This document shows positions 2,321 through 46,404 of a stretch of 64,000 nucleotides of DNA, one piece after another. The notes below the pieces were generated by a model. That model did not search any database. It saw only the letters and a program-made list of their open reading frames with translations, and was not told where the DNA came from. Source of the stretch: Rhodobacterales bacterium (GTDB lineage Bacteria; Pseudomonadota; Alphaproteobacteria; Rhodobacterales; CAZPXZ01); assembly GCA_965217995.1 (NCBI GenBank), contig CBDCKB010000004.1, forward strand, positions 323,788 to 387,787, in the 5' to 3' direction. Numbering within the stretch: the first letter of the stretch is position 1; each line of letters opens with the position of its first letter. The translations under genes were made by a program, and so were the position numbers.

Positions 2321-2322
2321 GC

Positions 2323-5828: not shown

Positions 5829-7580
5829 TCATTTTCTGGCCTCCGACGGATCTTCCGCTGTGTCCAGGATCGGTTTGCGCAACCAGTCCAGAATTCTGTC
5901 CTCTCCCGCAATCGCCAGGTGAACCCGGGCCCTCGACATGGCTACATAGGGAAGTTCCCTTTTGTCCACCAGACTCTGGTCGGCGGCAAGCAGCACCACA
6001 GGACGCTCGAGACCCTTGAATCTCCGGATGCTGTCCACCACGATCGCGCCCTCGCACGGCTTCTCGCATCGGGTCGTTTCGCACCCGCCAAAGCGACCGT
6101 CCGATGTGAGGGCCTCGATGGCTTTCTCGCTGGGGACGAGAACGGCAATATCACCCGGCGGCACCCCCTGATCCGCAATCAGGCGACCGGCATATTCGGA
6201 AAGCACACGCCCGGTTGCCGCAAGCCCCTCCGCAGGCACCGGAAGCCATTCCACCTCGGTGCCCTCGGTGCCGGATGCCTCAATTTCGGAACCGACATAG
6301 AACCGGTGGACGGCGGCGTGGATCTGCAGCGTATTGCGCAGGTTCTTCACAAGACGAAAGCTGGATGCCTCCACATCTTTCGGCAGTTCTCCCGCCTCCT
6401 GATGGACCTGCTGGTTGCTGTCGTAGAACACCCGCAGGACACCCCCCGATTTGAGTCCGGTGTCGAGCGCAATCCACCAGAGTTTCCGGAAATCCTGTCC
6501 CTCATCCACGATGATCGCGTCATACCGCACATCCGGCAGGCGTTCGAACGCGGTCATCAGCACGTCCGGAGCCTGGTCGTACCATTCCCGGGACACCCGG
6601 GCGGGGTCATCCGGCGGCGTCCGGGACGTGGCATCCGACGGCGGATCGAGCCCGGCGCACTTTTTCATATATGCGCACAGACTGTGGAAGGTTCTGACCT
6701 CGAAGGCCGCATCTTCCCCCAGCCCCCGCTGCGCCCAGGCCGAAAGCGCGCGGTTGAAGCAGACAAACAGCACCCGCCGCCCCCCTTCGGCCTGTCTCGC
6801 CGCCTCCTCGAGGGCCAGCATGGTCTTGCCCGTGCCGGCCGCGCCGCTGATGGCCACCCGCGATTGCTCCCGGATCGACTCCAGGACCCAGAACTGGTTC
6901 CGGGTCAGAACCTCCAGCCTGCGGTCATCCGCCGACAGCAAATTCTGCAGCGGCATCCGGAAATGCACCGGGTTCGCCAGAATCTTCTCCAGCGCACGAA
7001 TGCCGTCATTGCCCAGCGCCTTCTCCCGGTCTTCCGCTTTCGGCGCCACGCCCATGCGGTTCCCGATCCACTCCCCGCTCCCGTCGCGACGGAAATCCTC
7101 ACAGCTCCAGAAGATCTCCCGCGGCCTGTCCGCCCCCAGAACCCCCTCGGGCAGGGAAGCGTCCGGCAGGACGACACCGTGCCGCATCCGGATATACCGC
7201 TGGTGCCAATCCGGGGTTGCCTTCAGCTTCGCAAGCAACTGATGCTTCGACGACCGCGCCTGCGAGACGGGATCCTTGATCCGATGCTCGACCCCGGCCC
7301 GGTCCCGGCTGGTCCACTGGTCGCTTTCCGGATCAAACGCAACCGCGCCACCCTTGACCTCCAGGACAAGAATCCCCCGCCGGGGATGCGCGACCACAAA
7401 ATCACATTCGCCGTCGACTTCTCCGCCATCCGGGCCGACCCCGAGCCACGGACACGCATAAAACACATGGAACGAACCGTCCAGAATCTGCTTCAGCCGC
7501 TCATAGACCTCGCATTCCGCCCGCCGCAGCGGGTCCCCCGCGACCTCCTGCGGCAACGATCTCGGCCACATGTTCGCCAT
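5829..7580 (-). CDS. NERD-domain protein fused to a UvrD-like (SF1) helicase/ATPase
   Basis: This is the real part of the 1751-aa track ORF, with ATG at 7580 (MANMWPRS...). The N-terminus is NERD-like (ECDFVVAHPRRGILVLEVKGG). It has Walker A (GAAGTGKT), IIVDEGQDF and a C-terminal FKGLERPVVLL motif. Confidence 0.8.
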   Translation of the reverse strand: MANMWPRSLPQEVAGDPLRRAECEVYERLKQILDGSFHVFYACPWLGVGPDGGEVDGECDFVVAHPRRGILVLEVKGGAVAFDPESDQWTSRDRAGVEHRIKDPVSQARSSKHQLLAKLKATPDWHQRYIRMRHGVVLPDASLPEGVLGADRPREIFWSCEDFRRDGSGEWIGNRMGVAPKAEDREKALGNDGIRALEKILANPVHFRMPLQNLLSADDRRLEVLTRNQFWVLESIREQSRVAISGAAGTGKTMLALEEAARQAEGGRRVLFVCFNRALSAWAQRGLGEDAAFEVRTFHSLCAYMKKCAGLDPPSDATSRTPPDDPARVSREWYDQAPDVLMTAFERLPDVRYDAIIVDEGQDFRKLWWIALDTGLKSGGVLRVFYDSNQQVHQEAGELPKDVEASSFRLVKNLRNTLQIHAAVHRFYVGSEIEASGTEGTEVEWLPVPAEGLAATGRVLSEYAGRLIADQGVPPGDIAVLVPSEKAIEALTSDGRFGGCETTRCEKPCEGAIVVDSIRRFKGLERPVVLLAADQSLVDKRELPYVAMSRARVHLAIAGEDRILDWLRKPILDTAEDPSEARK

Positions 7581-23570: not shown

Positions 23571-23640
23571 ACCGACCCCGGTGGAAAAACCAACGCCGAC
23601 AAGGCCCGCTAGGAATGCTAGATGTAGTGATTGCGTGCAG

Positions 23641-23709
23641 GGGATTGGCCTTGCTCGCATGCTATATTATACATCGGTTTCCGTTTGCACTGATGAAAGG
23701 CAATATCTC
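23641..23709 (+). promoter_or_regulatory. Conserved 5' leader of the Sel1 cassette (copy 2)
   Basis: gggattggccttgctcgcatgctatattatacatcggtttccgtttgcactgatgaaaggcaatatctc-ATG is shared with 26692-26759 and partly with 19546-19608. It contains a TATATT element and an aaagg SD-like element. Confidence 0.35.
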
Positions 23710-29695: not shown

Positions 29696-29848
29696 CTGAA
29701 ATCACTTTCAATATTCATGATATATGCTGAAATTACTTTCAATTTTCAGGCTATACCATGAAATTGCTTTCAATATTCATAGTATAAATGGCACACTTTC
29801 AATATTCAGACTATATACTGAAATTACTTTCAATATTCACTATACAGG
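29696..29848 (+). repeat. Five tandem approximately 31-bp iteron-like repeats
   Basis: The core CTGAAATTACTTTCAATATTCA starts at about 29696, 29727, 29758, 29790 (partial) and 29818. The array ends 8 bp before the ATG of the ATPase gene. Confidence 0.85.
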
Positions 29849-29855
29849 TAAAACC

Positions 29856-31683: not shown

Positions 31684-33126
31684 ATGCGTAAGAATAGAAA
31701 ACACAGAATAAAAAAAGCCCGCGACAAACTCGTCACGGCAATCGTAGCACACTACCGAACAGGTGCCGAGCAAGGGGAAGCAGAAGCTCAACTTCACCTT
31801 GGGGCGCTGTACTGTGTCGGGGAGGGTGTCCCCAAAGATTACAAAAAAGCCGCGATATGGCTTCGAAAATCGGCCGAGCAAGGAGAGCCGCAAGCTCAAT
31901 CTCGCCTGGGGTCGCTGTACCTTTATGGAAACGGTGTCCCCCAGGACCATGCGGAAGCCTTGGCATGGTTCCGAAAATCGGCCGAGCAAGGGGAGCCTGA
32001 CGGCCAACATGGCCTGGCGGGGATGTACCTTGCCGGGGTGGGTGTCCCCCGGGACCCTGCAAAAGCCATCGCGTGGCTCCGAAAAGCGGCCGAGCAAGGG
32101 CACCCCAACTCTCAATGTGGTTTAGGGGTCCTGTTCAATTTCGGTGAGGGCGTGCCCCAAGACCATGCAGAAGCCGCAATATGGCTCCGGAAAGCGGCCG
32201 AGCAAGGACATCCCGAAGCTCAAACTCGCCTGGCGGAGATGTACCATCTCGGTAACGGCGTGCCCCAAGATGACGCAGAAGTCACAGCATGGCTCCGAAA
32301 AGCGGCCCAGCAAGGGCACCCCGAGGCTCAAACTCGCTTGAGAGAGATGAACCATCCCGGTAACGGTGTACCCCCCCAAGATCACGCAGCAGCCGTAGCA
32401 CGATGCCGAACAGCGGCCAAGCTAGGAGACCCTGACGGTCAACATAACCTGGCGAAGATGTACCTTTTCGGACAGGGTGTTCCCGAAGACCCCGCAAAAG
32501 CCATAGCATGGTTCCAAAAAGCGGCAGAGCAAGGACACCCCGAAGCTCAGTCTCACTTGGGGGAGATATACTATTTCGGTAGGGGCGTGCCTCAAGACTA
32601 CGCAAAAGCCCTGACATGGGTCCGAAAAGCGGCCGAACAAAATCTGCCGGCAGCTCAAGGTGTCTTGGCGGCGATGTACGGTAACGGTGAGGGCGTGCCC
32701 CAAGACCTGGCAAAAGCCGTGGCATGGGCACAAAAAGCGGCCAGCCAGGGGAACTGCGAATCCCAATACAACCTGGGGCAGACATACAGGAACGGTAATG
32801 GCGTCCCTCAGGACCCCGCAAAAGCCGCGGCATGGTTCCGGAAAGCGGCCGAGCAAGGGCACCCCCAAGCTCAAGGTATCCTGTCGGCGATGTACCATGT
32901 CGGCGAAGGCGTGCCCCAGGATTACGGAGAAGCCATGGCATGGTGCAAAAAATCAGCCGAGCAAGGGGATCCACAAGCTCAATTCAACATGGGGGTGATG
33001 TACTACAAAGGTGAGGGCGTGCTCCAGGATTACGAAACAGCCACAGTATGGTTCAAAAAAGCGGCCCAGCAGGGGCATTCCCAGGCGCAAGAGACTCTGA
33101 CTTTCGTCAGCAGTGGATACCGCTAG
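31684..33126 (+). CDS. Sel1-repeat protein (about 12 repeats), no obvious signal peptide
   Basis: An RBS ggagg lies upstream of ATG 31684. Repeats have the form AQxxLGxxYxxGxGVPQDxAKAxAWxRKAAEQGHP. GC is higher than in the other three Sel1 genes. Confidence 0.85.
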   Translation: MRKNRKHRIKKARDKLVTAIVAHYRTGAEQGEAEAQLHLGALYCVGEGVPKDYKKAAIWLRKSAEQGEPQAQSRLGSLYLYGNGVPQDHAEALAWFRKSAEQGEPDGQHGLAGMYLAGVGVPRDPAKAIAWLRKAAEQGHPNSQCGLGVLFNFGEGVPQDHAEAAIWLRKAAEQGHPEAQTRLAEMYHLGNGVPQDDAEVTAWLRKAAQQGHPEAQTRLREMNHPGNGVPPQDHAAAVARCRTAAKLGDPDGQHNLAKMYLFGQGVPEDPAKAIAWFQKAAEQGHPEAQSHLGEIYYFGRGVPQDYAKALTWVRKAAEQNLPAAQGVLAAMYGNGEGVPQDLAKAVAWAQKAASQGNCESQYNLGQTYRNGNGVPQDPAKAAAWFRKAAEQGHPQAQGILSAMYHVGEGVPQDYGEAMAWCKKSAEQGDPQAQFNMGVMYYKGEGVLQDYETATVWFKKAAQQGHSQAQETLTFVSSGYR

Positions 33127-33720: not shown

Positions 33721-35334
33721 ATGACCGACTCTTCCGAGCAGGCACGCAAGATGCTGGCCGATCATGCGCATTCACTCGCCGACCGCACACTCCGCCAGCT
33801 CTTCGACAACGATCCGGGCCGGTTTGCCGACCTCTCCCTGACACAGGACGACATGCTGCTCGATTTCTCGCGCAACCGACTCACCACGGAAACGCTTGAC
33901 CTGTTTGTCGATCTCGCCCGCGCCTGCAATCTCGAGAAAGCCCGCGATGCGATGTTTGTCGGCATGCCGGTCAACAGCACCGAGAGGCAACCTGCCCTGC
34001 ACACATCGCTGCGCCATCCCGAAGGCGGGAACACGAAATATGCGGGGGCAATTCGTGATGCACGCGAGCGCATGCTCGATTTTGCCGAAGGGGTGCGAAC
34101 CGGTGCTTTTACCACCGTCGAGGGCAGCCCCTATACGGATGTCATAAATATCGGCATCGGCGGCTCTGCCCTGGGCCCGGCGATGGCAATTCGTGCCCTT
34201 GCACCCCGGCATGACGGCCCCCGCATCCACATCCTCTCGAATATCGACAGCGCAGAAGCTGTGGATGTGCTCACCGGGCTTGACCCCGCACGCACGCTGG
34301 CGGTTGTGATCTCAAAGACATTCACCACTCCGGAGACCCTGGCAAACGCCCACGCCACCCGTGCCTGGCTCACAAAATCTCTGGGAGAAGACGGTGCGCG
34401 GCGACAGATGGTGGCGGCGACTGCCTATCCGGACCGGGCCGCCGGTTGGGGAATTCAAGAATCACAGATTTTTACGTTCAGCGAATGGGTCAGCGGCCGG
34501 CTGTCGGTCTGGTCGGCAGCCGGGCTGACGCTCGCCATCGCCATCGGCCGCACAGACTTCGAGTCGATGCTGGCGGGTGCCGCCGAGATGGACCGGCATT
34601 TCTGCTCCGCCCCCTTGCCCGAAAACCTTCCTGTAATTCTTGGCCTCACCGGAATATGGAACCGTGACTTCTGCGGCCATGCCGCACGTGCGGTGTTTCC
34701 CTATGGCCGGCGCCTTGCATTGCTCCCCGACTACCTCCAGCAACTCGAGATGGAGTCCAACGGAAAATCGGTGACCGCCGAAGGCATCCCGCTCACCGGA
34801 CCGAGTGCCCCACTAGTCTGGGGTGGTGTCGGCACCGACGCACAGCACGCGGTTTTCCAGTTTCTCCACCAGGGAAGCGACCCGATGCTCTGTGAATTCC
34901 TGATTGCCGCAAACGGCGACGACACCGGCCCCGAACAGCATCACTCCATGCTCATCGCCAATTGCCTGGCGCAATGTGAAGCGCTGGCGCGCGGACGCAC
35001 CCTCCAGGAAGCCCGCGACTCACTCCTCTCCGAAGGCGCCGACGAAGAGACCGCCGATCGCCTTGCGCCGCACAAGATCATGCCCGGCAACCGCCCTTCA
35101 ACGCTGATTGCCTACCAACAACTTGATCCGTTCACACTAGGGCGAATTCTTGCGCTCTACGAGCACCGGGTATTCGTTGAAGCCACAATTCGGGGCACCA
35201 ATCCGTTTGACCAGATGGGTGTGGAACTCGGCAAGGAGCTCGCGCATGCACTCCTGCCCGTGCTCAAAGTCGGTGGAGAGGGTTCTACGATGATTTCCGG
35301 TGCATTAGCGCATCTTTTTTGTCTCCAAAAATGA
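33721..35334 (+). CDS. pgi: Glucose-6-phosphate isomerase
   Basis: ATG at 33721 (MTDSSEQARKML...DRTLRQLFDNDPGRF...). IGIGGSALGP and GVELGK motifs are present. The upstream 148 codons of the track ORF are not pgi-like. Confidence 0.9.
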   Translation: MTDSSEQARKMLADHAHSLADRTLRQLFDNDPGRFADLSLTQDDMLLDFSRNRLTTETLDLFVDLARACNLEKARDAMFVGMPVNSTERQPALHTSLRHPEGGNTKYAGAIRDARERMLDFAEGVRTGAFTTVEGSPYTDVINIGIGGSALGPAMAIRALAPRHDGPRIHILSNIDSAEAVDVLTGLDPARTLAVVISKTFTTPETLANAHATRAWLTKSLGEDGARRQMVAATAYPDRAAGWGIQESQIFTFSEWVSGRLSVWSAAGLTLAIAIGRTDFESMLAGAAEMDRHFCSAPLPENLPVILGLTGIWNRDFCGHAARAVFPYGRRLALLPDYLQQLEMESNGKSVTAEGIPLTGPSAPLVWGGVGTDAQHAVFQFLHQGSDPMLCEFLIAANGDDTGPEQHHSMLIANCLAQCEALARGRTLQEARDSLLSEGADEETADRLAPHKIMPGNRPSTLIAYQQLDPFTLGRILALYEHRVFVEATIRGTNPFDQMGVELGKELAHALLPVLKVGGEGSTMISGALAHLFCLQK

Positions 35335-35752
35335 TACGTAATTTCTACATTTCCACATATCACCTCAGGCCTTCTCCCATCAAAACTATATCACTGCATA
35401 TTGTGATTTCACTGCGCTAGATCGGTATTGTGATGCGCGCAAAATTGTCAGGAACTAACCATCCGAAAACTTCGCATCTTAGCATTCTATCAGAGATAGG
35501 CCATCGTCAGAAATCGCAAAATAGCAGAATCGAAACGCTCCATCAAATTTGAATCACACCTATCGAACTCACTCCAATTGATACGTCACCGCCGAACCCA
35601 TGAGTCAAATGTTAAGCATAATTGCCAGTTGTCGATTTCCAAGAGTACAAAAATCATACTAAGTTATGCTGTTTTTGTTATCTAATTTTAGCATATTTTT
35701 GTATAACAGCAGTAATATCACGCTAATAATACCTTCGTGCATCGTTAAATTT

Positions 35753-35772
35753 TGATCAATAAATATTGATCA
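35753..35772. repeat. 20-bp near-perfect palindrome TGATCAATAAATATTGATCA in an AT-rich non-coding tract
   Basis: It has 9-bp arms with 2 central bases and contains two GATC sites. Confidence 0.6.
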
Positions 35773-35888
35773 CAAATAATAATAAAATAGCTATTCGGAG
35801 ATTCTTTTAATCAACAAATTCCGCAGTCCACACCACAAAATAACCATGCAATATCCACAGGTATGTTCACGCTTGATCGCCACATATA

Positions 35889-37808
35889 TTACGTGCCGTG
35901 TAATAGAGAAGAAAAAAATCCTATTTCCGGTTGGTCCGGCAATCCCACTAATACAGATCTATCCAAGAACTGATTATACTGCTCGCAAGCTGTCTCAGGG
36001 GCGAAAACACAGGCATGGCATGCCGCAAGGGACAGTCTGTCGGAATCGTCAACTCCATAATTTTCCAAGATGCACAAGGGATCCGATGAGCACCATTGCA
36101 TCATCTGTATAGCCGATTTGATTACCTGTTGAATGCGAGTAGCTTCGCCCTGCCTTTGCAACCCCCCGAGTGTTCCGTCCGAGTCAGAGGTTGCAGTATA
36201 GATCAGAAGCCCCGCCATGTCAAGGTTCCCATTGCACACATATAGACGCTCACGTAAGGAGGCCGTCGAGTATCCACATTCCAGTGCAAGTCGGCGCATG
36301 AGTGCGTGTGCAAATGTGTGGACTAGCAAATAGCGGGCGGTTATCTTCTGCGCGGGCTTGCCTTCTTTATAGCGTCGCGCCCACTCTCTTTGCCACGCTT
36401 GGTCAACACCATCTGCGCGTTTCTTAATGTCACTGTTCGTTTCCCAAACGTGCAGCTGGTCATGATTAAATTCCAAGAAAATTCCTTCGCCACGAACTTC
36501 AATCGCCGGAAGCCAATTACGCCGAGAGGACGAAAGCGGAGCCATATACAAACTCTCTTCATCACCCGGGGGATTTATTCTAGTAAAACCCACCAATGCA
36601 CGCACTTCACGCAACCGCACAACACGCACCACGCGGCTTAAGAAAGGTTGCAGGCTACTAGGCAAGTTTTTTTCTACTCGTATTTCAAATTCGCCATGCG
36701 ATGTTTTTCCTTCCGTATCAGTGGTATTCTCTACTAGCTTGCGGTACTCTTCTTCGCGGATACTCAAACTAACTCTATCATTTTCCCTCTTAATTTGGTT
36801 TTCGATACGTTCTACAAGCTGTTCCGTAGTAGAAATACCATACTTTAAATATATCAATTCAATTTTTTTCTTTTGGTCGCCTTCTGCAAGCATAGAAATG
36901 ATTATTGCTCGATTTTCCGGTTTAACACTGACGATTGATGACCAAGAATCTCCGAGATCTTCCTTGAGCGTATCTGACCAAGGTGGAATGCTTAGAGCCG
37001 ACCGGATCACCGGAAAATATAAATTCGAAGCGGCGCGTTGCAACACACGCGGCTCTGAGTTACAGCTTTCATTCTTTGAAATTAACCATGGCCGCCGCCC
37101 TCTGCATGTGATTTTCCGTAAGATCAAAGCCTCGGCGCCAAAAATACCTTCCATGGATTGCTGTGCGCGACATTCACGACATTCTAGAATCAATCCAGCC
37201 AACCCAGCGCCTTTTGATATAAGATAAAGACTGCCTTGCTCCCCATTGTTATTGCAATCGGGCTTGTGCCTCACCCACCAATGCCACGGAAACTCATCCA
37301 AATGTCCCTTTTCGCATGCAACTACAAAGGGGCACGGGACTACAAAAACGTTACGCTTACCCGGAGCTCGATACGTGCATTGTGGGCAGAGCCGATAGGC
37401 ATGGCTGGAGGATTTATCCCATTCGGATGCAAGTGCAATGCGTTTGCATTCCGGACATTGTAACCATTCTGGAAATCGTACAGCAACGAGTGATCTGTCA
37501 TCAGACTTACCATCTTTATGGTCCCACTTGCGCTCATACACGACGGGCGGCAGGCGAAATCCTTGTACTGACAATTGCTTCTCCAAACGAGGTTCACTAA
37601 TTTTTTGTGGATTGTTTAGCCCCGCCGGAGGAAAAGCTGTGTCCCATTGCTCAAGCCCCGATACAACGGCAGACACGGGGCCGTCATCAACACGAAAGTC
37701 TACCACCGACCCTGGACCTCCCGTCATGATCACAGTGCTTCTGCGTAGTTTGCCCAAATTGTTATCTACCATTATCGTTCCTGCAGTAACCTTTCTTAAA
37801 GAATTCAC
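35889..37808 (-). CDS. DUF1998-domain protein, DrmB-like
   Basis: The GTG start overlaps the upstream stop (GTGA). The C-terminal Cys signature is WCSSDPLC...LAACHACVFAPETACEQYNQFLDRSVL. The N-terminus contains LRRSTVIMTGGPGSVVDF...LEQW. Confidence 0.7.
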   Translation of the reverse strand: MNSLRKVTAGTIMVDNNLGKLRRSTVIMTGGPGSVVDFRVDDGPVSAVVSGLEQWDTAFPPAGLNNPQKISEPRLEKQLSVQGFRLPPVVYERKWDHKDGKSDDRSLVAVRFPEWLQCPECKRIALASEWDKSSSHAYRLCPQCTYRAPGKRNVFVVPCPFVVACEKGHLDEFPWHWWVRHKPDCNNNGEQGSLYLISKGAGLAGLILECRECRAQQSMEGIFGAEALILRKITCRGRRPWLISKNESCNSEPRVLQRAASNLYFPVIRSALSIPPWSDTLKEDLGDSWSSIVSVKPENRAIIISMLAEGDQKKKIELIYLKYGISTTEQLVERIENQIKRENDRVSLSIREEEYRKLVENTTDTEGKTSHGEFEIRVEKNLPSSLQPFLSRVVRVVRLREVRALVGFTRINPPGDEESLYMAPLSSSRRNWLPAIEVRGEGIFLEFNHDQLHVWETNSDIKKRADGVDQAWQREWARRYKEGKPAQKITARYLLVHTFAHALMRRLALECGYSTASLRERLYVCNGNLDMAGLLIYTATSDSDGTLGGLQRQGEATRIQQVIKSAIQMMQWCSSDPLCILENYGVDDSDRLSLAACHACVFAPETACEQYNQFLDRSVLVGLPDQPEIGFFSSLLHGT

Positions 37809-40800
37809 TTGTTAAGTTTAAAACGCGTTGAAGCCTCAACGTCGCGCATGCTGTTCAATGTTGGCCAAGCCTCCCCTATGCTACGTCCCATCGCGCTAAG
37901 CGTAGCGGCCCTTTCTGCATCTTGGAGCAGTGAATCTGTTTTTGCCATCTTCCAATAACTTTGAGGATTACGAGTCTTCCAGTTGTCTAGGAGATCATTC
38001 AATTTTTCTCGTACAGACTCTCCTTCCTGTGAATCAATTTCTTTAGATCTTTCAACAATGTAGTTGATGATATTCTCGGTATCTTTAATAGCTTTATTGT
38101 TTAGTACCGGACGATCAAGCATTCCGGGCACTAAATGCCGCACTAGTGCTACTAACACGGCGTGTAGCGCTTTGTCTAGTGCCCTCGGCGCAAACGGAGT
38201 AACGCTAGCCGGCTCAACATCTCGATACAGCGTCTCATGCCACGCCGGGAAGGTTTCATAGTGTGAGCGGTCGCGTGCTTTCGCATTGTTAAATACGGTA
38301 ACCACCAAACCCGGGTCCTCGCCACGTCCGACACGACTTGTTGCTTGGATATATTCAGCAATTCCCTTTGGCTGACCAAACACCAGCATTAAACCAAGGC
38401 GAGGAATATCTACCCCAACACTCAGCATGTTGGTCGCGAGAACAACATCAAGTGCGTTTTGCTTATCATCCACAGGAATTGAGAGCTTGTCCAGCATCTC
38501 CCTAACTTCGGCTTGTGTACGTCGAGATGTCAACTCTGCTATCCATTTAGGCTTCCGGCGTGCACATTCCTCGCCTCGCCGTTTTGCAAGCATTTCAATG
38601 CTACGGTTTACATCATCATGCATTAAAACAAGAGCACCACCTAACTCCCGTAATGAGTTGAAATAAGAAACTAGCGTCCAATAGGAATCTCGTATCTTAT
38701 CATCAGTGGTAGCACCAGAGGCAGACTGGAGCAGTGACGCAGCCACTGCCTGGTATGTAAATTTTGCCGACCGGCCCGCTGTTGTTACACCCGTATAGCT
38801 TCTACCAGGATCCTTTCGGTCTACAACTGCAAAAGCAGAATCTTTAGCATCAATACCTGATGGAGGAAACTGTTCTGTCGTGCGGTTAAACAGAGATTTT
38901 ACCTGTTCGGGTGCCCGCTTGATTGTTGCTGTGGACCCAATAATTTTGGGAACCGCACCTCCACATGAAAACATGCGATCGATCGCAACTTCGTAAAGAC
39001 CAGCAACAGTTCCTAATGGCCCGGCAATAAGGTGAAGTTCATCTTGAAGAATAAGATCTGGTGGTTTTCGGTTACTTAGGTTAAACAGGTTGCTAATTTC
39101 TTTGCGCTTAACAATTTGTGCAAATTTATCAATTGTTCCAATCAGCAAGGTAGGCCTCTCCCGATATACGTCCTCGTCGACAGTCCAAACCGGAAGAGGA
39201 TTTTCGTGACAAAATAGAAGGCATTCTTTATTATGACACCGCACATGAATGGCAGAAGGTGGGTTCTCGTAAGGATTGCAAGTCAACTCCTCATGACATG
39301 CAGGACAATTCACAAGTTGCTTTGGTGTCGGTCGATCAGGGGCAGAAGGCTGTCTCAAGGCTGCGGCCGCATCGCACACTTTGTTTGGCACTGCATCACT
39401 TCCAACCCAGAGACCTATAGAGAAGGGAGTACTACCTAATTCATCCCTAGAACTCGACACACCTGCTTCGCATATGCGCCCTCGGCGAATTGCCTCACAG
39501 GCGAGTATAACTGATGCAGCGCGTGAGAACTGTTGCGTGGTCAGCAACCGAAGTGTGTACCTCATTATCGCAGCAACGCCACCGCCTTCGTCAGGATCAT
39601 CTCCGGCAGATAGCCTTCGATAGAAAGCAAGAAAGGCAATCAGTGCAAGATATGCCTCCGTCTTGCCACCGCCCGTAGGAAACCAAAGCAGATCCATAAT
39701 CTCTCTATCGGGATGTTCTCGATCAACTACAGAAGCCGCCGCAAGAAGAATAAAGCCAAGCTGGAACGGTCTCCACTCAAGCGGCTCACGCACTCCCTTT
39801 TTTAGATGATCCCACCCATACTGCTTTTCCATGGCAAGATTGGCCAAACTAAAAGCTCGCAACATCGTATCATCATTAGCAATCCACTCCGCGCCACTGG
39901 TCATTCGTGAATGAACCCGCTCGCAGGTTTCTATGTTTTCTGCGGCCTGATTTTGAAAAAATTCGGGAAGGGACGCCATTTCAGTTTTCTTAGCTCCGAT
40001 CCACTTCTTGTACGCCATCGGCAATTTTTGAAGGGCCTCTCCTAGTGCTGTCGGCTTTGCAGTCGCTAGCCATTGAGCTGAAAGTGGCTTATGCTTTGTA
40101 GAGTCACGCAATGCGTGAAAAACCTCATGCCCATGCCCGCTTGTCCTTGGAACCGCTGTGTTGGGAATCCAGCTCGTACCCACCATGCTGGCTATTCCTT
40201 GCTCTGAATTTGTTGCCTCCCACATGGCCGAGCAAGTATGCCCGGTTGCAAATTCATGAGCGTTTCGATACAATATATCTGCAATGGGACCGCTTTTATC
40301 CGACACAACATGCCGCACAGGTCGTGCAATTAGCTCCGTTCCTCCACCTCCGCTTGGCCAAATTTCTGTACAAACTTGAAACAACATCAACTTTTCTATA
40401 TCATCACGCTTCCTACTGTCATTAAGTCCCAAGCTTGCATTCACCAGAGTAACCGTTCCAAACGTTCGCTTTATATCATCCAAACATGATACAGCACGGA
40501 TATGCAGATTGACACCTGGAGGGCTCCCATGTTCTTCAAGATGAATATACCCTGAAGATTTCTTAAGTAGCACATCTTTTACGCTAATACTGTATGCGCG
40601 GCGTGTCCATTTCTTTTTTGCTTGTACATAACCATTGTTGCCCTCAGCGTGCTCAACTCTAGATACATCCGATTGGATATAGGTTGCGAAGCGAACCTTT
40701 ACATCTATTTTGGCATCCCCCGTTGTCGATTTTGTAGCGAAAGAAACTCCCGCAGAGCATGGCCGATTCAAGTGTAAGAGAGAAACACCTTCTTCGTTGC

Positions 40801-40996
40801 CGCTGCTTGCTGCGCTATCACTCTCTCCTGAAAGGCCTATCTGATCATCTTCTTCAGCCCCCACGCTGATTCTGCCCGGCCACAACATGCCCGTCAGATA
40901 CACATCCGATGGACGCCAGAACAAAATTTCGTTTTCTTCATATGGCCCCACCAAATCTTCTTTCAGACGGCTCAATACAATATCGCCAAAGGTCAT
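37805..40996 (-). CDS. Large SF2 (DEAD/DEAH-like) helicase, DrmA-like
   Basis: It carries motif I (FPTGGGKTEAYL), motif II (DELHLIAGPLG) and motifs V/VI (VLATNMLSVGVDIPRL, QATSRVGRG). The ATG overlaps the upstream stop (ATGA at 40993-40996). Confidence 0.7.
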   Translation of the reverse strand: MTFGDIVLSRLKEDLVGPYEENEILFWRPSDVYLTGMLWPGRISVGAEEDDQIGLSGESDSAASSGNEEGVSLLHLNRPCSAGVSFATKSTTGDAKIDVKVRFATYIQSDVSRVEHAEGNNGYVQAKKKWTRRAYSISVKDVLLKKSSGYIHLEEHGSPPGVNLHIRAVSCLDDIKRTFGTVTLVNASLGLNDSRKRDDIEKLMLFQVCTEIWPSGGGGTELIARPVRHVVSDKSGPIADILYRNAHEFATGHTCSAMWEATNSEQGIASMVGTSWIPNTAVPRTSGHGHEVFHALRDSTKHKPLSAQWLATAKPTALGEALQKLPMAYKKWIGAKKTEMASLPEFFQNQAAENIETCERVHSRMTSGAEWIANDDTMLRAFSLANLAMEKQYGWDHLKKGVREPLEWRPFQLGFILLAAASVVDREHPDREIMDLLWFPTGGGKTEAYLALIAFLAFYRRLSAGDDPDEGGGVAAIMRYTLRLLTTQQFSRAASVILACEAIRRGRICEAGVSSSRDELGSTPFSIGLWVGSDAVPNKVCDAAAALRQPSAPDRPTPKQLVNCPACHEELTCNPYENPPSAIHVRCHNKECLLFCHENPLPVWTVDEDVYRERPTLLIGTIDKFAQIVKRKEISNLFNLSNRKPPDLILQDELHLIAGPLGTVAGLYEVAIDRMFSCGGAVPKIIGSTATIKRAPEQVKSLFNRTTEQFPPSGIDAKDSAFAVVDRKDPGRSYTGVTTAGRSAKFTYQAVAASLLQSASGATTDDKIRDSYWTLVSYFNSLRELGGALVLMHDDVNRSIEMLAKRRGEECARRKPKWIAELTSRRTQAEVREMLDKLSIPVDDKQNALDVVLATNMLSVGVDIPRLGLMLVFGQPKGIAEYIQATSRVGRGEDPGLVVTVFNNAKARDRSHYETFPAWHETLYRDVEPASVTPFAPRALDKALHAVLVALVRHLVPGMLDRPVLNNKAIKDTENIINYIVERSKEIDSQEGESVREKLNDLLDNWKTRNPQSYWKMAKTDSLLQDAERAATLSAMGRSIGEAWPTLNSMRDVEASTRFKLNK

Positions 40997-43017
40997 AACT
41001 TCTGTCCTTTATATTGGTACTGAAAACACACCGCGCTGTACCCTAGCACTAGCGGTGCCAGCATGATACCGCTACTTCTCCATGGCTCGTGTAGATTTTG
41101 CCTTCTTTCTTCCGCCATATCCGATGGCACGACGATGGTGCGTACGCCCAACACATGCAAGTGGCAAATTTTGTTGGGCAAAGTTAATTTGTATCCAGAA
41201 AATTTCTTTTTATTGCTAATAATATCTTTTATACAGAACAAATCACTATTCACCTTCTTTGACAACACGGCAAGAAATTTACCTTGCCCTTCTTCTTTTA
41301 GTAAGTACGAAAAATTCATTTTACTATTAAGCTCGACAACCAAGGATACAACCTTTCCCGCGAAGCTGCTAATTCGCTCCTGGCTGACGTGTACATCACT
41401 CGAGTGCTCAAAAAAACCCTTTCCTGCCAAGCCGCCAACATTAATGTCACCGTCATGTCCGATTTCGACCTGTGCGCACAGATAGTTTCCCTTTCTCAAA
41501 TTGTTGTCCTTTACATGGTGATAAGCTCGACCGGATTTTTTAACTTTCTTAAACAATGGGCTATTTCCCTCACCGATCAGTAGCTGCGACCGCCCACGTG
41601 TCGCACCAACGAATATAACCCGCGCCTCTTCATCCTGGTTGCTATCGTTGGGTCGCATTTTAGGTAGCACAAGATGTACAATATCTGCCTCACGCCCCTT
41701 AGATGCATGGATCGTGCCTATGATGAACCCACACTGCCCCATCTCAGCATGGCACAATTCCGGTGGCGGGTTCTTTCTGCCTAGGTGCTTTCGTAATTTA
41801 TGCATATCCACGATTGTTGCCTCACAACCTGCAATACTAACTAGCTGCTCCCATGCGTGGTCACGTTCGCATGATAGAAAGGGCGAACCTTGTATTCTAT
41901 CTTCCCATAATTCTCCAAATCTCTTCTCACTTAGAATGGATCCCGTGTGCTCCGCAAGTGCTGCGCCGATCCAAGGTGCAAGGCACACGGGCAGTCCCGA
42001 CATTCGCACTCGATGCTGAATGCCTTCTCCCATCAGAAGCGAACTTCGAAGTAGCACATCGCCTCGCATGCGATACAAGATCAAGGCATCATTCTGATCG
42101 GGTGGTGTAAGAATTTCTTGTCCATTGTGACGCACCGCAATTTTGCCATGGGCGTGTCTTTTAATGTCTTCTCGAATTTCATCTAATTCTTTACTATCCG
42201 ATTCCTTCGTAACGGTCAGCACTTTGCGACGAGTGCTTGAAAAAATTTCCTGCAATTGTGGAGAGTCAGTACGATGCACACAGGTTAAGTTACATTCGTT
42301 GAATTCACCTGCTTCCCTTCCACGAATTTTGTCAGAAAATGACAGCTTCCAAAATCTGTCTTCACCACGAATATACGGCACATCAATAAATCCATGAATG
42401 GCTTGGGCTTCATCTGAGAATATGGTCACGCCGCATTTCGAGGATAGTCTTAAAATAAACTCAACAACAAAATCCGCGCGCATTCCAACAAAATCCTGAG
42501 CTTCATCAACTATCAGATGTTCGATGTCTTTAAGATAATTGGAAACTCTTTGATTCTGGTCATCGCGAATTAGATCAAGTGCACTTTTAATATTTTCTTC
42601 ATAGGACCTTTGTGCTTTTTCTTCATAGGACCTTTGTGCTTTTTCTTCCCCATCGAATCTTGAGCAAATGTCCCAAGCATGCGAATCTAGTGTGCCGATT
42701 TTTACCGCATAGGCAGCATATGTATCTTCAAGGTGGGTTCTAATTCGATTACGAATTTCTCGCACGGCAGCGCGCGTGAAACTTATCATCAAAATTCGAT
42801 TAGGCTTAACCAATTTTTTGCCAATCAATTGAGACACACGACCACAAGCGACCGCTGTCTTGCCCGTCCCCGGCCCCGCATCAACTAACAAGCGTCCCTC
42901 GTGACAAGAATCAATAACACTTCTTTGCGATTGATCCCACTCAATGCGATTAGGAGATATGATTTCAGGCCCGTTCATGGATTGGTTCTCATACTTTCTA
43001 CTGCTTGCCCTCATCAT
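40993..43017 (-). CDS. UvrD/Rep-like SF1 helicase with an unassigned approximately 200-aa C-terminal domain
   Basis: It has Walker A (DAGPGTGKTAV), LIVDEAQDF, GTIHASKGREADIVHL and VIFVGATRGRSQL. The start is uncertain: ATG 43017, GTG 43044 or ATG 42978. Confidence 0.7.
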   Translation of the reverse strand: MMRASSRKYENQSMNGPEIISPNRIEWDQSQRSVIDSCHEGRLLVDAGPGTGKTAVACGRVSQLIGKKLVKPNRILMISFTRAAVREIRNRIRTHLEDTYAAYAVKIGTLDSHAWDICSRFDGEEKAQRSYEEKAQRSYEENIKSALDLIRDDQNQRVSNYLKDIEHLIVDEAQDFVGMRADFVVEFILRLSSKCGVTIFSDEAQAIHGFIDVPYIRGEDRFWKLSFSDKIRGREAGEFNECNLTCVHRTDSPQLQEIFSSTRRKVLTVTKESDSKELDEIREDIKRHAHGKIAVRHNGQEILTPPDQNDALILYRMRGDVLLRSSLLMGEGIQHRVRMSGLPVCLAPWIGAALAEHTGSILSEKRFGELWEDRIQGSPFLSCERDHAWEQLVSIAGCEATIVDMHKLRKHLGRKNPPPELCHAEMGQCGFIIGTIHASKGREADIVHLVLPKMRPNDSNQDEEARVIFVGATRGRSQLLIGEGNSPLFKKVKKSGRAYHHVKDNNLRKGNYLCAQVEIGHDGDINVGGLAGKGFFEHSSDVHVSQERISSFAGKVVSLVVELNSKMNFSYLLKEEGQGKFLAVLSKKVNSDLFCIKDIISNKKKFSGYKLTLPNKICHLHVLGVRTIVVPSDMAEERRQNLHEPWRSSGIMLAPLVLGYSAVCFQYQYKGQKL
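42597..42644 (-). repeat. Perfect 24-bp tandem duplication inside the UvrD-like gene
   Basis: cttcataggacctttgtgcttttt occurs twice, encoding EEKAQRSY EEKAQRSY. Confidence 0.9.
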
Positions 43018-43206
43018 CGTTTTTCTGCTTCTCACAGCAGACACTGCATTGTCAATACACGCTTTACCAACACGGGTCAGCAGATTCGTGCGTGAAACAA
43101 TTCCGTTCCTCTTTCCGTCCCCCTTGGCATGCCATACATGATGACCCCTGCGATTTTTTATAGCTACCCAAAATGACTCTCGTGTATCTTTTTCAACTAG
43201 CTAATT

Positions 43207-43794
43207 TTAATTTCCTTGCCTAGAGTGCTCATCAGCTGATTCAAATTTTTGCTTCAACCATGCTAGAGCTACCTGTTGGTCTGCACGCGTTGCGCGGCGC
43301 AACTGTGCCAGCAACCATGTCCATGAAGGAGGCTCGATTGCCAGATTTTTTGCACCCTGATTGCAAGTGCTGCACAATGCCCGCAAATTCGACTGCTCAT
43401 CCTTCCCGCCATGGCTTCGGTCCACGATATGCCCAATATGTAAACGCACTTTACGACCCTCATCATCTTTGTCGCCGGCACCCATGCCACACATCTGACA
43501 TGTACACCCGTTCCTTGTCAAAACTAGAGCCCGGAGGCGGTGAGATATAGGGGAAGCGAACTTATAAGCCTTTCCGGTCGGTGGTGATTTTTCGAGAATA
43601 TATTGACCTGGTGCAAGATCCGCACGATCATTATGAGAGCTGATATCCCAGCCCTCTGCACGAAGGTCGCGCAAGCGCCGTGCCCACTCCACCGCACCAT
43701 TTGCAGCTTTTTGCAGTTCACTACTGTTGACCACAATGCCCACCTTACCCTCCAAATACGCCGCAAGGGCGGCTTTTGAACCTACGCGAGGCAT
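43207..43794 (-). CDS. HNH endonuclease (candidate restriction component)
   Basis: CTCQMCG...HIGHIVDRSHGGKDEQSNLRALCSTCNQ is a CxxC...HH...N...CxxC HNH zinc-finger. The ATG at 43794 overlaps the methyltransferase stop by 13 nt. Confidence 0.7.
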   Translation of the reverse strand: MPRVGSKAALAAYLEGKVGIVVNSSELQKAANGAVEWARRLRDLRAEGWDISSHNDRADLAPGQYILEKSPPTGKAYKFASPISHRLRALVLTRNGCTCQMCGMGAGDKDDEGRKVRLHIGHIVDRSHGGKDEQSNLRALCSTCNQGAKNLAIEPPSWTWLLAQLRRATRADQQVALAWLKQKFESADEHSRQGN

Positions 43795-44705
43795 TTGGCA
43801 ATGGCACGCGCCATGGCGTGCCCGAGATCAACAGGTAGGGCGTTTCCAACTTGCCTGTATCGTTGCGTTTTGCTTCCTGCCAATGTCCAATTCGTCGGCA
43901 GGCTCTGAAGGCGGGCTGCCATTTCGACGGTAAGCCTTGGTACACCAGAGAATTTTTTTGGAGGAGATGAATCCGCTATGCCAAGACCATCAACGCCAAG
44001 TGCTGCCCAAGCCGCACGCGCACGTGTAGGGCCAAGATCGGGGCCGCCATGCTTGCGCGAGCCACCTACAAGCGTCGGTGCCGGACGGTTTGCCTGTGCG
44101 GCCCAGTCCTTTGCTCGTTCCCATCCATTTTCCGCCATCAGTGATACCAAAGCCTCGCCAACCGTAGCGCCCTTCTTCCCGTTCGGCTTCGGCCACTCAA
44201 ATGCCAACGAGCTATCAATGGCGACCAGAAATGAACGAGTGCGGTGTTGTGCTGCACCATAATCGTGAGCGTCCAGCATCCTCCAATCGACCCAATATCC
44301 CATATCCTCCAATTGGTGCCGAATGTCCTCCCGATATGTAGCAAACCGCTTCGTCATCAGGCCGCGCACATTTTCGATCAGCACCGCGCGGGGTTCGGTT
44401 TCCATAACGATCTGCAACAGAACCGGAAATAGATCGCGCTCATCGGCGGCTCCATGTTGCTTGCCTGCAACAGAGAACGGCGGGCACGGTAGTCCCGCCG
44501 CCACAACATCTACAGCTCCACGCCAATACGTAGCGTCGAACCGATTTAGATCTGCTTCGATAACATTCCAATAAGGACGGTTTATGCGCAATGTAGCGCA
44601 GGCGTGGGGATCGCTATCAATCAATGCCGCATGATCAAAGCCCGCCTGCTCAAAGCCAAGGGCCTGGCCACCAGCACCAGCGCAGAGTTCAAGGGTAGTC
44701 GGCAT
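43782..44705 (-). CDS. DNA (cytosine-5)-methyltransferase
   Basis: It has motif I (ELCAGAGGQALG), motif IV (GLPCPPFSVAG), motif VI (ENVRGL), motif VIII (QHRTR) and motif X (GNALPV). ATG at 44705. Confidence 0.85.
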   Translation of the reverse strand: MPTTLELCAGAGGQALGFEQAGFDHAALIDSDPHACATLRINRPYWNVIEADLNRFDATYWRGAVDVVAAGLPCPPFSVAGKQHGAADERDLFPVLLQIVMETEPRAVLIENVRGLMTKRFATYREDIRHQLEDMGYWVDWRMLDAHDYGAAQHRTRSFLVAIDSSLAFEWPKPNGKKGATVGEALVSLMAENGWERAKDWAAQANRPAPTLVGGSRKHGGPDLGPTRARAAWAALGVDGLGIADSSPPKKFSGVPRLTVEMAARLQSLPTNWTLAGSKTQRYRQVGNALPVDLGHAMARAIAKCLA

Positions 44706-44880
44706 TAGACAATTAGATCTCGAGAGCACAACCGGTTGCCAATCATGCCCTCAAGCATGCCTGCCATTTCGCCGATGGTATCACGCAATCGATCATTGTG
44801 ACAATAGACGAATTCGCCCGCATAGCGATCAAGGCACTTCTCGGGACAGTGACGAGAAGTATCCTGCGTCATCCGATCGC
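44705..44880 (-). pseudogene. IS1595-family (ISXO2-like) transposase C-terminal remnant
   Basis: HCPEKCLDRYAGEFVYCHNDRLRDTIGEMAGMLEGMIGNRLCSRDLIV resembles the conserved IS1595 C-terminus (H.s.khL.rY..EF.fR.N.R..dt...m......g.rL.Y.dLi). The N-terminal DDE part is absent. Confidence 0.45.
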
Positions 44881-44911
44881 CTTGCGGCACAAACACAGCC
44901 CACAGCATCCC

Positions 44912-46243
44912 CTACCCCTCCAGCGGCAATCCCACCTCCACCGCGCCATTGCGATGCGTGGCAAAGAAATCCCGGATCCGCCCGTCCGCGCGAATCGAAC
45001 TCCGCTGGATCGGCCGCCGTAGCCAGATCCCCTCGAAAGTCGTGCACCGGCTGAGCGCCACATAGGTCTGGCCGGCGGCAAAGGCACCCCGCTCGAGGTC
45101 TATCACCACCCGATCGAAGGTTTTCCCCTGGCTCTTGTGGATGGTCACCGCCCAGGCCAGGCGGAAGGGAAGCTGGGTGAACTCCCCGACAGGCTCGCTC
45201 ACAATGCTGCCATCCACGAGGGAGAAGCGGATCACGTTCCAGGTATGGCGGCGCACCTCGACCGGATTTCCCACATCCCGCAGTCGTACCTGCAGATTGG
45301 CTCCGCCCCCCGCATCGGGTGCAACCGACTCGATCACGCCGATGCTGCCATTCACCCAGCGGCCGCCAGAATCGTTGTTGAGCATCATGATCTGCGCACC
45401 TTCCTTGAAGGTGAGCTGATCCGCGGTCGGATACTGCTCTCGCCCGAAATCCTTCGAGATTTCGGCTCGGGAAACCCATTTCTGGCCCGACAGCCCGGCA
45501 AGTTTCCGGTCATTGATCTGGTCGGCATTCCGGTTGGTCGCGGTCAGATGGATCGTGAAGCCGTCCTCCGGAGGTTCGAATTCCGGTGCCAGACGCTCGT
45601 TCAGGCGGTCGATATCCTCCTCCTTCACCGAGGCATCACGGACCCGGTTGAGGAGTTCGACAAAGCCGGCGTCCTGCTGCCGGTAGACCTTCTTCAATTC
45701 GACAATCTCCAGCCCGATGCGGTTCAGCGCCTTGGCACTGAAAAAATACGGGGTCTCGTAGACACTGCTAAAGATCTCACGCTCATCCTTGGTAACCACC
45801 GGTGGGAGCTGGTAGAGATCGCCGACAAACACCATCCGCACGCCACCGAACGGCACCTTGCCCCGCGGCCCGTACCTGCGCAGAAAGATGTCCACGCAAT
45901 CGAGCAGATCAGCCCGCAGCATCGAGACCTCATCGATGATGACGGTCGAAAGCCGCTTGTAGAGATCCGGATCCCGCGGCTTGCGCCCGCTATTGCGCAC
46001 CCGGTCCGGTGTCACCTCGATGCCAAAACCGAAAAACCGGTGCACCGTCTGCCCGTGCACGTTCAGTGCCGCCACTCCGGTGGGTGCGAGAATCACCGGC
46101 GAATCCTTCGCGGTTTCCCGGAAATGCTCGAGCAGCGTCGACTTCCCGGTACCCGCCTTGCCGGTCACGAACAACGAGCCCCAGCCGGATGCCATCAGAT
46201 CCAGGGCACGACGGAATTCGGGGTTGATCTCGATCTCGGCCAT
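44912..46243 (-). CDS. Pif1/RecD-like SF1B helicase (AAA_30 type)
   Basis: ATG at 46243 (MAEIEINPEFRRALD...). It has Walker A (GKAGTGKST), IIDEVSM and the C-terminal AWAVTIHKSQGKTFDRVVID. Confidence 0.8.
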   Translation of the reverse strand: MAEIEINPEFRRALDLMASGWGSLFVTGKAGTGKSTLLEHFRETAKDSPVILAPTGVAALNVHGQTVHRFFGFGIEVTPDRVRNSGRKPRDPDLYKRLSTVIIDEVSMLRADLLDCVDIFLRRYGPRGKVPFGGVRMVFVGDLYQLPPVVTKDEREIFSSVYETPYFFSAKALNRIGLEIVELKKVYRQQDAGFVELLNRVRDASVKEEDIDRLNERLAPEFEPPEDGFTIHLTATNRNADQINDRKLAGLSGQKWVSRAEISKDFGREQYPTADQLTFKEGAQIMMLNNDSGGRWVNGSIGVIESVAPDAGGGANLQVRLRDVGNPVEVRRHTWNVIRFSLVDGSIVSEPVGEFTQLPFRLAWAVTIHKSQGKTFDRVVIDLERGAFAAGQTYVALSRCTTFEGIWLRRPIQRSSIRADGRIRDFFATHRNGAVEVGLPLEG

Positions 46244-46404
46244 GGATCCCGTCCCCTGCCGGGCCGGCTCCGGCACAGGATGGCGGAAGCCCGAAGCGGC
46301 ACCGGCAAATATACACTGCCTTCCAGACCCGACACGGCATTGCGGCCTCCCGCCGCTCCCCGTATTCCTGCCCGTGGTCACACCGGCCGACAGGGAAGCA
46401 GCGC

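Follow-up and report, generated by a model that had tools for sequence, protein, structure and literature searches.

A UvrD-linked DrmAB cassette, probably a DISARM-related defence system, beside a putative type II-like restriction-modification pair in an AT-rich island of a Rhodobacterales genome

The class 2 DISARM locus of Bacillus paralicheniformis, as reportedly described by Ofir and colleagues in 2018, has the gene order drmE-drmA-drmB-drmC-drmMII. To our knowledge, the mechanism by which DISARM stops phages is still unclear, and we know of no function for DrmE. Here we analyse a relative of these systems in a 64,000-nucleotide (nt) stretch of the genome of a Rhodobacterales bacterium (GenBank assembly GCA_965217995.1, contig CBDCKB010000004.1, positions 323,788 to 387,787 of the forward strand; hereafter the window), in which an AT-rich island carries genes for a predicted UvrD-like helicase, DrmA, DrmB, an HNH endonuclease and a C5 cytosine DNA methyltransferase (C5 methylase). 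DISARM systems consist of drmA, drmB and drmC together with drmD and drmMI (class 1) or with drmMII and often drmE (class 2); DrmC is dispensable in the systems tested, and the protection conferred by class 1 DISARM is partly independent of methylation (PMC9142583; 10.1101/2021.12.28.474362). The DrmAB complex of class 1 loads on single-stranded DNA (ssDNA) ends (PMC9142583). Our favoured reading, which together with the mechanism proposed below we hold to be reasonably probable, is that the island is a three-gene DISARM-related defence cassette (UvrD-like helicase, DrmA, DrmB) lying beside a separate restriction-modification (R-M) pair.

The nearest tested system that pairs YprA-family and UvrD-family helicases is ARMADA type II, for which defence against phage has been demonstrated in experiments (Bell et al. 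2025, bioRxiv 10.1101/2025.09.15.676423). Like the cassette, it brings a YprA-family and a UvrD-family (GajB-like) helicase together with a methylase in a multi-helicase operon. It differs in having an unsplit YprA protein that ends in a Vsr-type nuclease, a PglX-like (N6) methylase and the helicase BrxHII; moreover, its UvrD-like protein, ArmD, has an N-terminal RelE domain and is encoded last in the operon. In the island the YprA-type helicase is split as DrmA/DrmB, and no match to BrxHII or PglX was found there. Another likeness is to Gabija GajB and to the NERD-helicase defence proteins (Nhi; 'RTasNERD-Hel', 'NERD+UvrD'), which, as in the cassette, are UvrD-type defence motors of helicase superfamily 1 (SF1); no match to GajA, the OLD-type ATPase nuclease of Gabija, was found in the island. 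The DISARM-like clade is said by Bell et al. to contain 'many uncharacterized DISARM-like ... classes' (10.1101/2025.09.15.676423), and the UvrD-like/DrmA/DrmB architecture is not described in the available portions of their text and supplements. A preprint on SAR11 mentions a 'DISARM-like operon' that combines DrmAB with a DrmMII-type methylase and helicases but has no DrmC. Our search of the literature found no paper uniting UvrD, DUF1998 and NERD, no published name for the architecture, and no use of 'class 3/III DISARM' as a term for a defence system.

Every profile that we tried identifies the 1063-amino-acid (aa) and 639-aa proteins of the island, at the level of sequence, as DrmA and DrmB. 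The former, a superfamily 2 (SF2) helicase of the YprA family, matches the PADLOC DrmA model at 1.2e-214, the Serratia DrmA structure (PDB 7s9v_A) at 3.3e-136 and Pfam Helicase_C (pfam00271) at 2.5e-9; against the NCBIfam model DISARM_DrmAS ('short DrmA') it scores 903 bits, slightly below the 950-bit cut-off. The latter scores 523 bits against NCBIfam DrmB_fam (cut-off 240 bits) and matches PADLOC DrmB at 8e-88, PDB 7s9v_B at 3.1e-88 and Pfam PF09369 (DUF1998/MZB) at 1.3e-9. It is thus the OB-CON-DUF1998 (MZB) partner, encoded by its own gene that overlaps drmA. The likeness extends to class 1 DISARM of Serratia sp. SCBI (cryo-EM structures 7S9V and 7S9W), the DrmA and DrmB of which are clear homologues (3e-136 and 3e-88), with weak alignment only over the N-terminal part of DrmA. 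Since both proteins are homologous to a solved complex, the same ssDNA-loading translocase core is expected here. The island has no match to class 1 DrmD (SNF2, pfam00176) or DrmMI (N6, pfam13659). The phospholipase D (PLD) protein DrmC (pfam13091) is likewise absent from the five island proteins, and no recurrent PLD cluster was seen in 47 related loci.

The first gene of the cassette encodes a 683-aa protein of the SF1A type, with Pfam matches to UvrD-helicase (1.2e-23), AAA_19 and UvrD_C_2. Its AlphaFold2 (AF2) model (predicted local distance difference test score, pLDDT, of 78) resembles PcrA, UvrD and Rep (Foldseek E 1e-14), and among 22 homologues there is no variation in its motifs Walker A (GPGTGKT), Walker B (DEAQD) and VGATR. 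The homologues form a compact family, the top 120 being 45-56% identical over the full length. GajB profiles match the protein mainly N-terminally (~90-190 residues) and at a short C-terminal helicase motif, and the Nhi model matches around the P-loop only (1.5e-5). No DrmE or DrmD model matches it (NCBIfam; best 25 of 44 PADLOC matches; residues 188-683). A perfect 24-nt tandem duplication in the gene (42593-42640) yields the peptide SYEEKAQR-SYEEKAQR, which lies in a low-confidence loop of the model (residues ~133-148).

The helicase ends in an alpha/beta domain (residues 495-683) that is covered by no Pfam or PADLOC family. Modelled separately with AF2 (pLDDT 87, predicted template modelling score 0.81), its fold finds nothing significant in the PDB (best E 0.38, template modelling score at most 0.25) or in BFVD (best E 0.12). 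With a profile built on it, we recovered 411 clusters (50% identity) among 1.84 billion representatives; the domain is C-terminal in every listed match, and the full-length proteins are mostly 610-870 aa long. Judged from these searches, the domain is a family-specific signature of the UvrD-like protein.

To place the three genes in other genomes, we used two sets of loci. A scan with aligned members of the UvrD-like family, applied to a single genome from each species, gave 45 loci with substantial matches; the metagenome set comes from a scan seeded with an alignment of the NERD helicases described below, a scan with a single protein having given no matches. The genes for the UvrD-like helicase, DrmA and DrmB are adjacent and colinear in 34 of the 37 genome loci and in 36 of the 40 metagenome loci that hold all three, and from these 70 loci (34 and 36, respectively) we defined the 'UvrD-linked DrmAB cassette'. 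The window shows the same arrangement, with the UvrD-like helicase and its C-terminal domain encoded directly upstream of DrmA on the same strand. Both junctions in the island are 4-nt start/stop overlaps (UvrD-like/DrmA at 40993-40996, DrmA/DrmB at 37805-37808), and those of annotated relatives are gaps of 1-2 nt or overlaps of 11 nt. The closest cassettes share 66% identity in DrmA, 60% in DrmB and 55% in the UvrD-like protein with the island, and the gene order is kept in distant members with 34-42% identity in DrmA (L177, L178). Relative to homologues, the island's open reading frames (ORFs) are full length, with all catalytic motifs intact. It is near certain that the locus belongs to this conserved family.

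Carriers of the cassette include Alpha-, Beta- and Gammaproteobacteria, Smithella, Myxococcota, Planctomycetota, Verrucomicrobiota, Bacteroidota, Spirochaetia and a Synergistota genome. Among cultured organisms they include Rhizobium leguminosarum TA1 (pRltTA1C), Azospirillum ramasamyi, Pseudomonas fluorescens WCS317 and Chromobacterium, in which the NCBI annotation gives the cassette genes generic names only. Four-gene cassettes lie at ~10.0-19.1 kb of pRltTA1C (CP053207.2) and at ~73.0-82.5 kb of the A. ramasamyi plasmid (NZ_CP029836.1), and P. fluorescens WCS317 has one as well. The context of the relatives comprises WYL regulators, EcoRII-like, AspBHI-like and HNH_2 endonucleases, a type IV secretion system (T4SS) coupling protein, recombinases and plasmids. 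Only five viral contigs carry the cassette, which is therefore not mainly phage-borne.

Variation around the common order was also seen. Two tandem copies of the UvrD-like gene precede DrmA in L014, L020, L022 and L104, the genome-derived ones among these being Rhodobacterales, and in six Rhodobacterales loci (L015, L017, L020, L021, L022, L034) the cassette is immediately preceded by the gene for a WYL-domain regulator of ~300 aa. A ~1570-aa ResIII/Helicase_C protein is encoded just upstream of the cassette in L017, L018 and L021, in L017 and L021 before the WYL gene. The UvrD-like gene follows the NERD helicase in L094 and does so inverted in L127 and L145, in the latter as a second copy. 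On the mobilizable plasmid NZ_CP029836.1 of Azospirillum ramasamyi (L167), a gene for a DarT ssDNA ADP-ribosyltransferase (15069-15671 of L167) directly follows a four-gene cassette, and the UvrD-like protein has an N-terminal extension of ~300 aa (929 aa in total).

Most family members have a fourth gene. DrmB is directly followed by a ~560-aa fusion of a NERD nuclease domain (PD-(D/E)xK) and an SF1 helicase in 22 of the 32 genome loci with room downstream, a count to which L009 was added by hand, its gene overlapping that of DrmB. In the metagenome set, members of the NERD-helicase family lie directly after DrmB in 49 of 54 cases with enough sequence (91%). These fourth genes match the NERD-helicase models of PADLOC at 2e-55 to 6e-51. 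The remaining ten genome loci lack the gene; they include L004, L005, L006, L008 and L010, which are near relatives of the island by DrmA, and the three-gene form is therefore a recurrent natural variant. It is also the form found in the window, where no NERD helicase follows DrmB: between 35335 and 35888 there is no ORF of at least 90 aa, and tblastn found no remnant.

How does the cassette compare with class 2 DISARM? As in class 2, the island has a split pair of YprA-type DrmA and DUF1998 protein DrmB encoded by adjacent, overlapping genes, a C5 methylase at the locus and an accessory gene immediately upstream of drmA, and its DrmA comes near the 'short DrmA' model (903 bits). It differs from class 2 in lacking the PLD protein DrmC and DrmE, the upstream gene encoding instead an SF1A UvrD-like helicase with an orphan domain. 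Most members of the cassette family further differ from class 2 in having the NERD helicase after DrmB, and in a methylase that has no fixed place or strand and is often accompanied by an endonuclease of its own or by Vsr. Finally, the cassette DrmA proteins form a separate clade: in a neighbour-joining tree without bootstrap, the UvrD-linked DrmA proteins, that of the island included, group together, apart from class 1 DrmA (represented by three plasmid loci that also encode DrmD and an N6 methylase), a Bacillus cereus type and a class-2-like locus of Lactiplantibacillus.

The last of these came from a search for a canonical class 2 locus on plasmids, in which most 'drmA' matches were class 1 or other and one locus was class-2-like. 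This locus (L172, Lactiplantibacillus plantarum plasmid CP096865.1) encodes DrmMII, an 801-aa protein (4697-7102), DrmA and DrmB. Homology of the UvrD-like protein to DrmE was rejected, BLASTP against the 801-aa protein in the DrmE position giving E 14; PADLOC itself misses the 801-aa protein, and the DrmE negative is only as good as sequence methods. No PADLOC model recognises the L172 protein, and the DrmE profiles now in use therefore leave some of the diversity of class 2 uncovered.

The island lies between pgi, which ends at 35334, and a gene for a Pif1-like helicase, which ends at 44912, and holds five intact minus-strand genes (Table 1). At its borders GC drops from about 0.65 to 0.45-0.48. 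Measured in 500-nt windows, a GC of 0.61-0.63 over pgi gives way to 0.37 at 35.5-36.0 kb; from there through 43.5 kb the values are 0.43-0.51, and beyond 44 kb they recover to 0.59-0.72 (0.67-0.72 beyond 46 kb of the window). GC at third codon positions (GC3) is 0.81-0.87 in host genes, against 0.41-0.45 in the three helicase genes of the island. The helicase genes (GC 0.45-0.48) lie below the methylase and HNH genes (0.52-0.56), and the island is therefore compositionally composite. The sole gap separating the R-M pair from the three overlapping helicase genes is the 162 nt at 43045-43206, within which the helicase operon probably starts; scans of the island for consensus promoters and terminators gave only the chance level of shuffled sequence. 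The whole window has no tRNA or Rfam match, and there is no integrase at the island borders. A 19-nt direct repeat (17/19 matching; 35054-35072 and 44873-44891) was rejected as an att site, because such a repeat is about what chance would give over 10 kb and because its left copy lies 280 nt inside high-GC pgi. The last ~15 codons of pgi (35290-35334) are themselves already AT-rich.

These results agree in large part with an earlier note on this DNA, which had described the drop in composition between pgi and the Pif1-like gene, the five minus-strand ORFs at the coordinates given here, and coupling through the two 4-nt overlaps, including that of a UvrD-like gene positioned upstream of drmA; the 500-nt GC windows and the ORF coordinates bear all of this out. 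Its assignment of the 1063-aa and 639-aa proteins to DrmA and DrmB holds in PADLOC, NCBIfam, Pfam and the PDB, the DUF1998 match included, and the motifs that it quoted (GGGKTEAYL, DELHLI, QATSRVGRG, WCSSDPLC and AACHACVFAPETACEQYNQFLDR) are all present in the translations. It was also right that the island has neither a PLD nor an SNF2 gene, as judged by Pfam and PADLOC and by a spacer after DrmB that holds no gene. The comparison of the 683-aa protein with DrmE and GajB profiles that it proposed gave no match to the former and a mainly N-terminal one to the latter. What it had missed is the usual fourth gene of such cassettes, that for the NERD helicase.

Table 1. Features of the island and the distal NERD helicase gene in the window, with base composition
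Feature	Coordinates	Strand	Length and remarks	GC	GC3
AT-rich non-coding spacer between DrmB and pgi	35335..35888	.	554 nt	~0.35	
DrmB	35889..37808	-	639 aa	0.48	0.45
DrmA	37805..40996	-	1063 aa	0.48	0.41
UvrD-like SF1A helicase, first cassette gene	40993..43044	-	683 aa	0.45	0.42
C-terminal domain of the UvrD-like protein	40996..41562	-	residues 495-683; AF2 model		
Intergenic gap upstream of the UvrD-like gene	43045..43206	-	162 nt		
HNH endonuclease, putative restriction partner	43207..43794	-	195 aa	0.52	0.47
C5 cytosine DNA methyltransferase	43782..44729	-	315 aa; likely true start ATG at 44705	0.56	0.52
Distal NERD + SF1 helicase	5829..7580	-	583 aa, intact	0.64	0.77

The 315-aa protein is a C5 methylase of the kind expected in class 2 (Pfam DNA_methylase, PF00145, 1e-61), its gene lying 738 nt upstream of the UvrD-like gene. 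Its best PADLOC models are DruM2 (1e-122) and MTase_II, with DrmMII at only 1.6e-36, and in the PDB it matches M.HaeIII (9e-22) and M.HhaI (5e-18). No Vsr is present. The neighbouring 195-aa protein is a predicted zinc-finger HNH endonuclease (Pfam HNH, 8e-10; weak PADLOC match to REase_II, 1e-9) with 2763 homologues at E up to 1e-5. No homologue of it lies in any cassette locus (0 of ~125 related loci), so that the earlier note's idea of all five genes as one conserved module did not survive. The methylase and HNH genes overlap by 13 nt and recur as an adjacent unit: HNH homologues adjoin C5 methylases, with no DrmAB nearby, in L081, L083 and L084, and in L082 a 69%-identical HNH gene stands beside a 69%-identical methylase truncated by an insertion sequence (IS) element. 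A further homologue stands alone beside IS elements (L085); HNH homologues without an intact methylase, as in L082 and L085, would be unexpected of a classical restriction enzyme. The recurrence of methylase and HNH genes without DrmAB makes them an independent mobile module docked beside the helicase cassette and, as far as gene content and order can tell, an independently acquired type II-like R-M pair. Type II systems with an M.HaeIII- or M.HhaI-like methylase and an HNH enzyme resemble the pair in being independent modules of overlapping, co-directional genes. The earlier note had offered two readings of the island, and its second, DrmAB combined with a type II pair, was right as to origin, given that the pair recurs without DrmAB and differs in GC. 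Of the first, an undescribed DISARM subtype, one part stands, in that a recurrent type without a published name was found; the inclusion of the HNH/methylase pair, a separate module, does not.

A methylase of this class is nevertheless a regular neighbour of the cassette. Within the fetched flanks, 25 of 34 genome loci (74%) and 31 of 36 metagenome loci (86%) have a C5 methylase or Vsr, counted within ~10 kb on either side and either strand, and in this sense the methylase of the window counts as cassette-linked too. N6 methylases are not recurrent among the clusters of cassette neighbours. In several loci the methylase is paired with an endonuclease: three have an EcoRII-like one, three an HNH_2 and four an AspBHI-like enzyme dependent on 5-methylcytosine (5mC). 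The AspBHI-like enzyme (RE_AspBHI_N and Mrr_cat) adjoins the cassette's C5 methylase or NERD helicase in L004, L007, L011 and L016; enzymes of this type cut 5mC-modified DNA, which makes it a strange companion of a 5mC methylase. The frequency with which cassette and 5mC methylases occur together nevertheless suggests that the cassette-linked methylase supplies the self-mark, by analogy with DrmMII in class 2 DISARM.

From the observed homology, synteny, gene coupling, intact motifs and mobile, defence-type context, we infer the following mechanism. By analogy with DISARM of classes 1 and 2, the C5 methylase would mark host DNA with 5mC. DrmA and DrmB, homologous to the solved complex, would act as a YprA-type translocase that loads on ssDNA ends or overhangs of unmarked incoming DNA. 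The UvrD-like helicase, made in step with DrmA from overlapping frames, would be an obligate second motor, as strict synteny and gene overlap suggest, and its C-terminal domain may couple the helicase to DrmAB or to DNA. In about two thirds of cassettes the fusion of NERD nuclease and SF1 helicase would supply cleavage, the role proposed for the PLD protein DrmC. In the island, interference could come from the helicases alone, from the neighbouring HNH nuclease or from a NERD helicase encoded 28 kb away; action of the helicases alone is conceivable because DrmC is dispensable in the DISARM systems tested. It is, in our view, an even question whether the cassette represents a third, mechanistically distinct class of DISARM, in which an SF1A motor with an orphan C-terminal domain takes the place of DrmD or DrmE and a PD-(D/E)xK helicase-nuclease that of the PLD effector, the effector being provided here in trans (28 kb) or dispensed with.

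Three points weigh against our favoured reading. First, within 10 kb neither a C5 methylase nor a Vsr accompanies 9 of the 34 genome loci; with about a quarter of genome loci in this state, methylation dependence is not obligatory or not in cis. Second, the methylase of the island fits DruM2 and MTase_II better than DrmMII, has its own nuclease partner and differs in GC from the helicase genes, and may therefore serve its own R-M pair only. Third, the locus lacks the nuclease gene of most family members and could be partly disabled.

The first two points lead to the rival that survives best, although we regard it as unlikely: two unrelated systems may simply be neighbours, an ordinary type II R-M pair on the one hand and on the other a helicase system that is independent of methylation and senses DNA structure, such as free ssDNA ends. 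The pair's occurrence alone elsewhere, the complete absence of its HNH gene from cassettes, the split in GC, the nine loci without a C5 methylase or Vsr and the methylases that often keep company with EcoRII-like or HNH_2 endonucleases of their own are all as this rival would have it, as is the partial methylation independence of class 1 DISARM. What it leaves unexplained is that a C5 methylase or Vsr occurs in 74-86% of loci, far beyond our own expectation for a single methylase class, that N6 methylases do not recur in the same way, and that the C5/Vsr association is kept even in the very distant L178. We keep to a cassette for which a neighbouring 5mC methylase may provide the self-mark.

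The third point directs attention to the distal NERD helicase, which forms the C-terminal part of a spuriously long ORF 28.3 kb from DrmB. It has Pfam NERD and UvrD_C_2 matches, a PADLOC match to RTasNERD-Hel (6e-51) and conserved nuclease and Walker motifs. That the system is split, with this protein as a working fourth subunit encoded in trans, strikes us as doubtful. The gene is intact, shares the strand of DrmB and keeps the order relative to it that four-gene cassettes have; its nearest relatives (53-56% identical) are the NERD helicases of the very cassettes closest to the island; its divergence agrees with the DrmA-versus-NERD-helicase trend line that true cassettes follow; and 91% of its family is bound to the cassette. 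Against this stands its host-like composition (GC 0.64 versus 0.45-0.48), which points to a separate acquisition, the four cassette genes of relatives sharing one common GC. Furthermore, the intervening 28 kb are genes of housekeeping type, and three-gene cassettes without a NERD helicase are common among close relatives. An insertion of 28 kb that parted the cassette from its NERD helicase was rejected, given a GC difference of 0.17 in genes that are uniform in cassettes elsewhere. A separate, older acquisition is more likely than a split of the island, and from its sequence the protein might function in trans or be left over from an older cassette.

The absence of a NERD helicase after DrmB, where 22 of 32 loci have one and the island has 554 nt of AT-rich non-coding sequence, would also fit a decaying remnant that lost its nuclease gene, and with it the defence function, on or after insertion, and decayed, frameshifted cassettes do exist elsewhere (L029, L047). 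We nonetheless judge this improbable: all five ORFs are full length, with intact motifs and with the overlapping start and stop codons kept, and the three-gene form is common to ten independent loci. That the genes form a DNA-repair module akin to MrfA/YprA with UvrD, rather than an immune system, is very improbable. Both the YprA family, through MrfA, and UvrD do have a part in repair; but the split into DrmA and DrmB is what marks out the DISARM branch, the base composition sets the genes apart from the host genome as foreign, and carriage is patchy over many phyla and on plasmids, beside R-M, WYL, recombinase and T4SS genes.

Several other genes of the window deserve mention. The distal NERD helicase has two genes downstream of it, one for a 928-aa subtilase (2926-5712, minus strand; Pfam Peptidase_S8, weak match to the PADLOC 'subtilase' model), which has no counterpart in any cassette locus, and an 856-aa ORF without a family (23-2593, minus strand); together, the three genes at 23-7580 may form a second small defence cluster. 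Four plus-strand genes encode Sel1-repeat proteins of 316-700 aa (19549-21651, 23581-25497, 26760-27710, 31684-33126) and lie in patches of lower GC (0.46-0.58), where the coding strand is strongly skewed towards A over T (up to 0.47). Expansion of Sel1-type repeat proteins is typical of host-associated bacteria. Another lower-GC patch among them holds a plus-strand gene for a DUF4143/AAA_14 ATPase (29724-31016). The Pif1-like SF1B helicase that borders the island (44912-46381, minus strand; GC 0.625, GC3 0.77) has partial PADLOC matches (PDC-S68, RecD-like) and is not recurrent in the cassette loci searched in either set.

Our analysis describes a natural and widespread clade of cassettes, found in many phyla and in ~400 clusters at 50% identity. 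Specialists already expect uncharacterised relatives of DISARM; the UvrD-linked cassette nonetheless stands out as sharply delimited and widely distributed. The published PADLOC definitions of types I and II require DrmC, DrmD and DrmE genes, none of which it has, and, as its genes also carry generic names in NCBI annotation, naming and testing the cassette would close a gap in the annotation of defence systems. The cultured carriers make it tractable. With the two least understood parts of DISARM replaced by a UvrD-type motor and a NERD nuclease-helicase, the cassette may offer a handle on the accessory subunits of the DISARM family.

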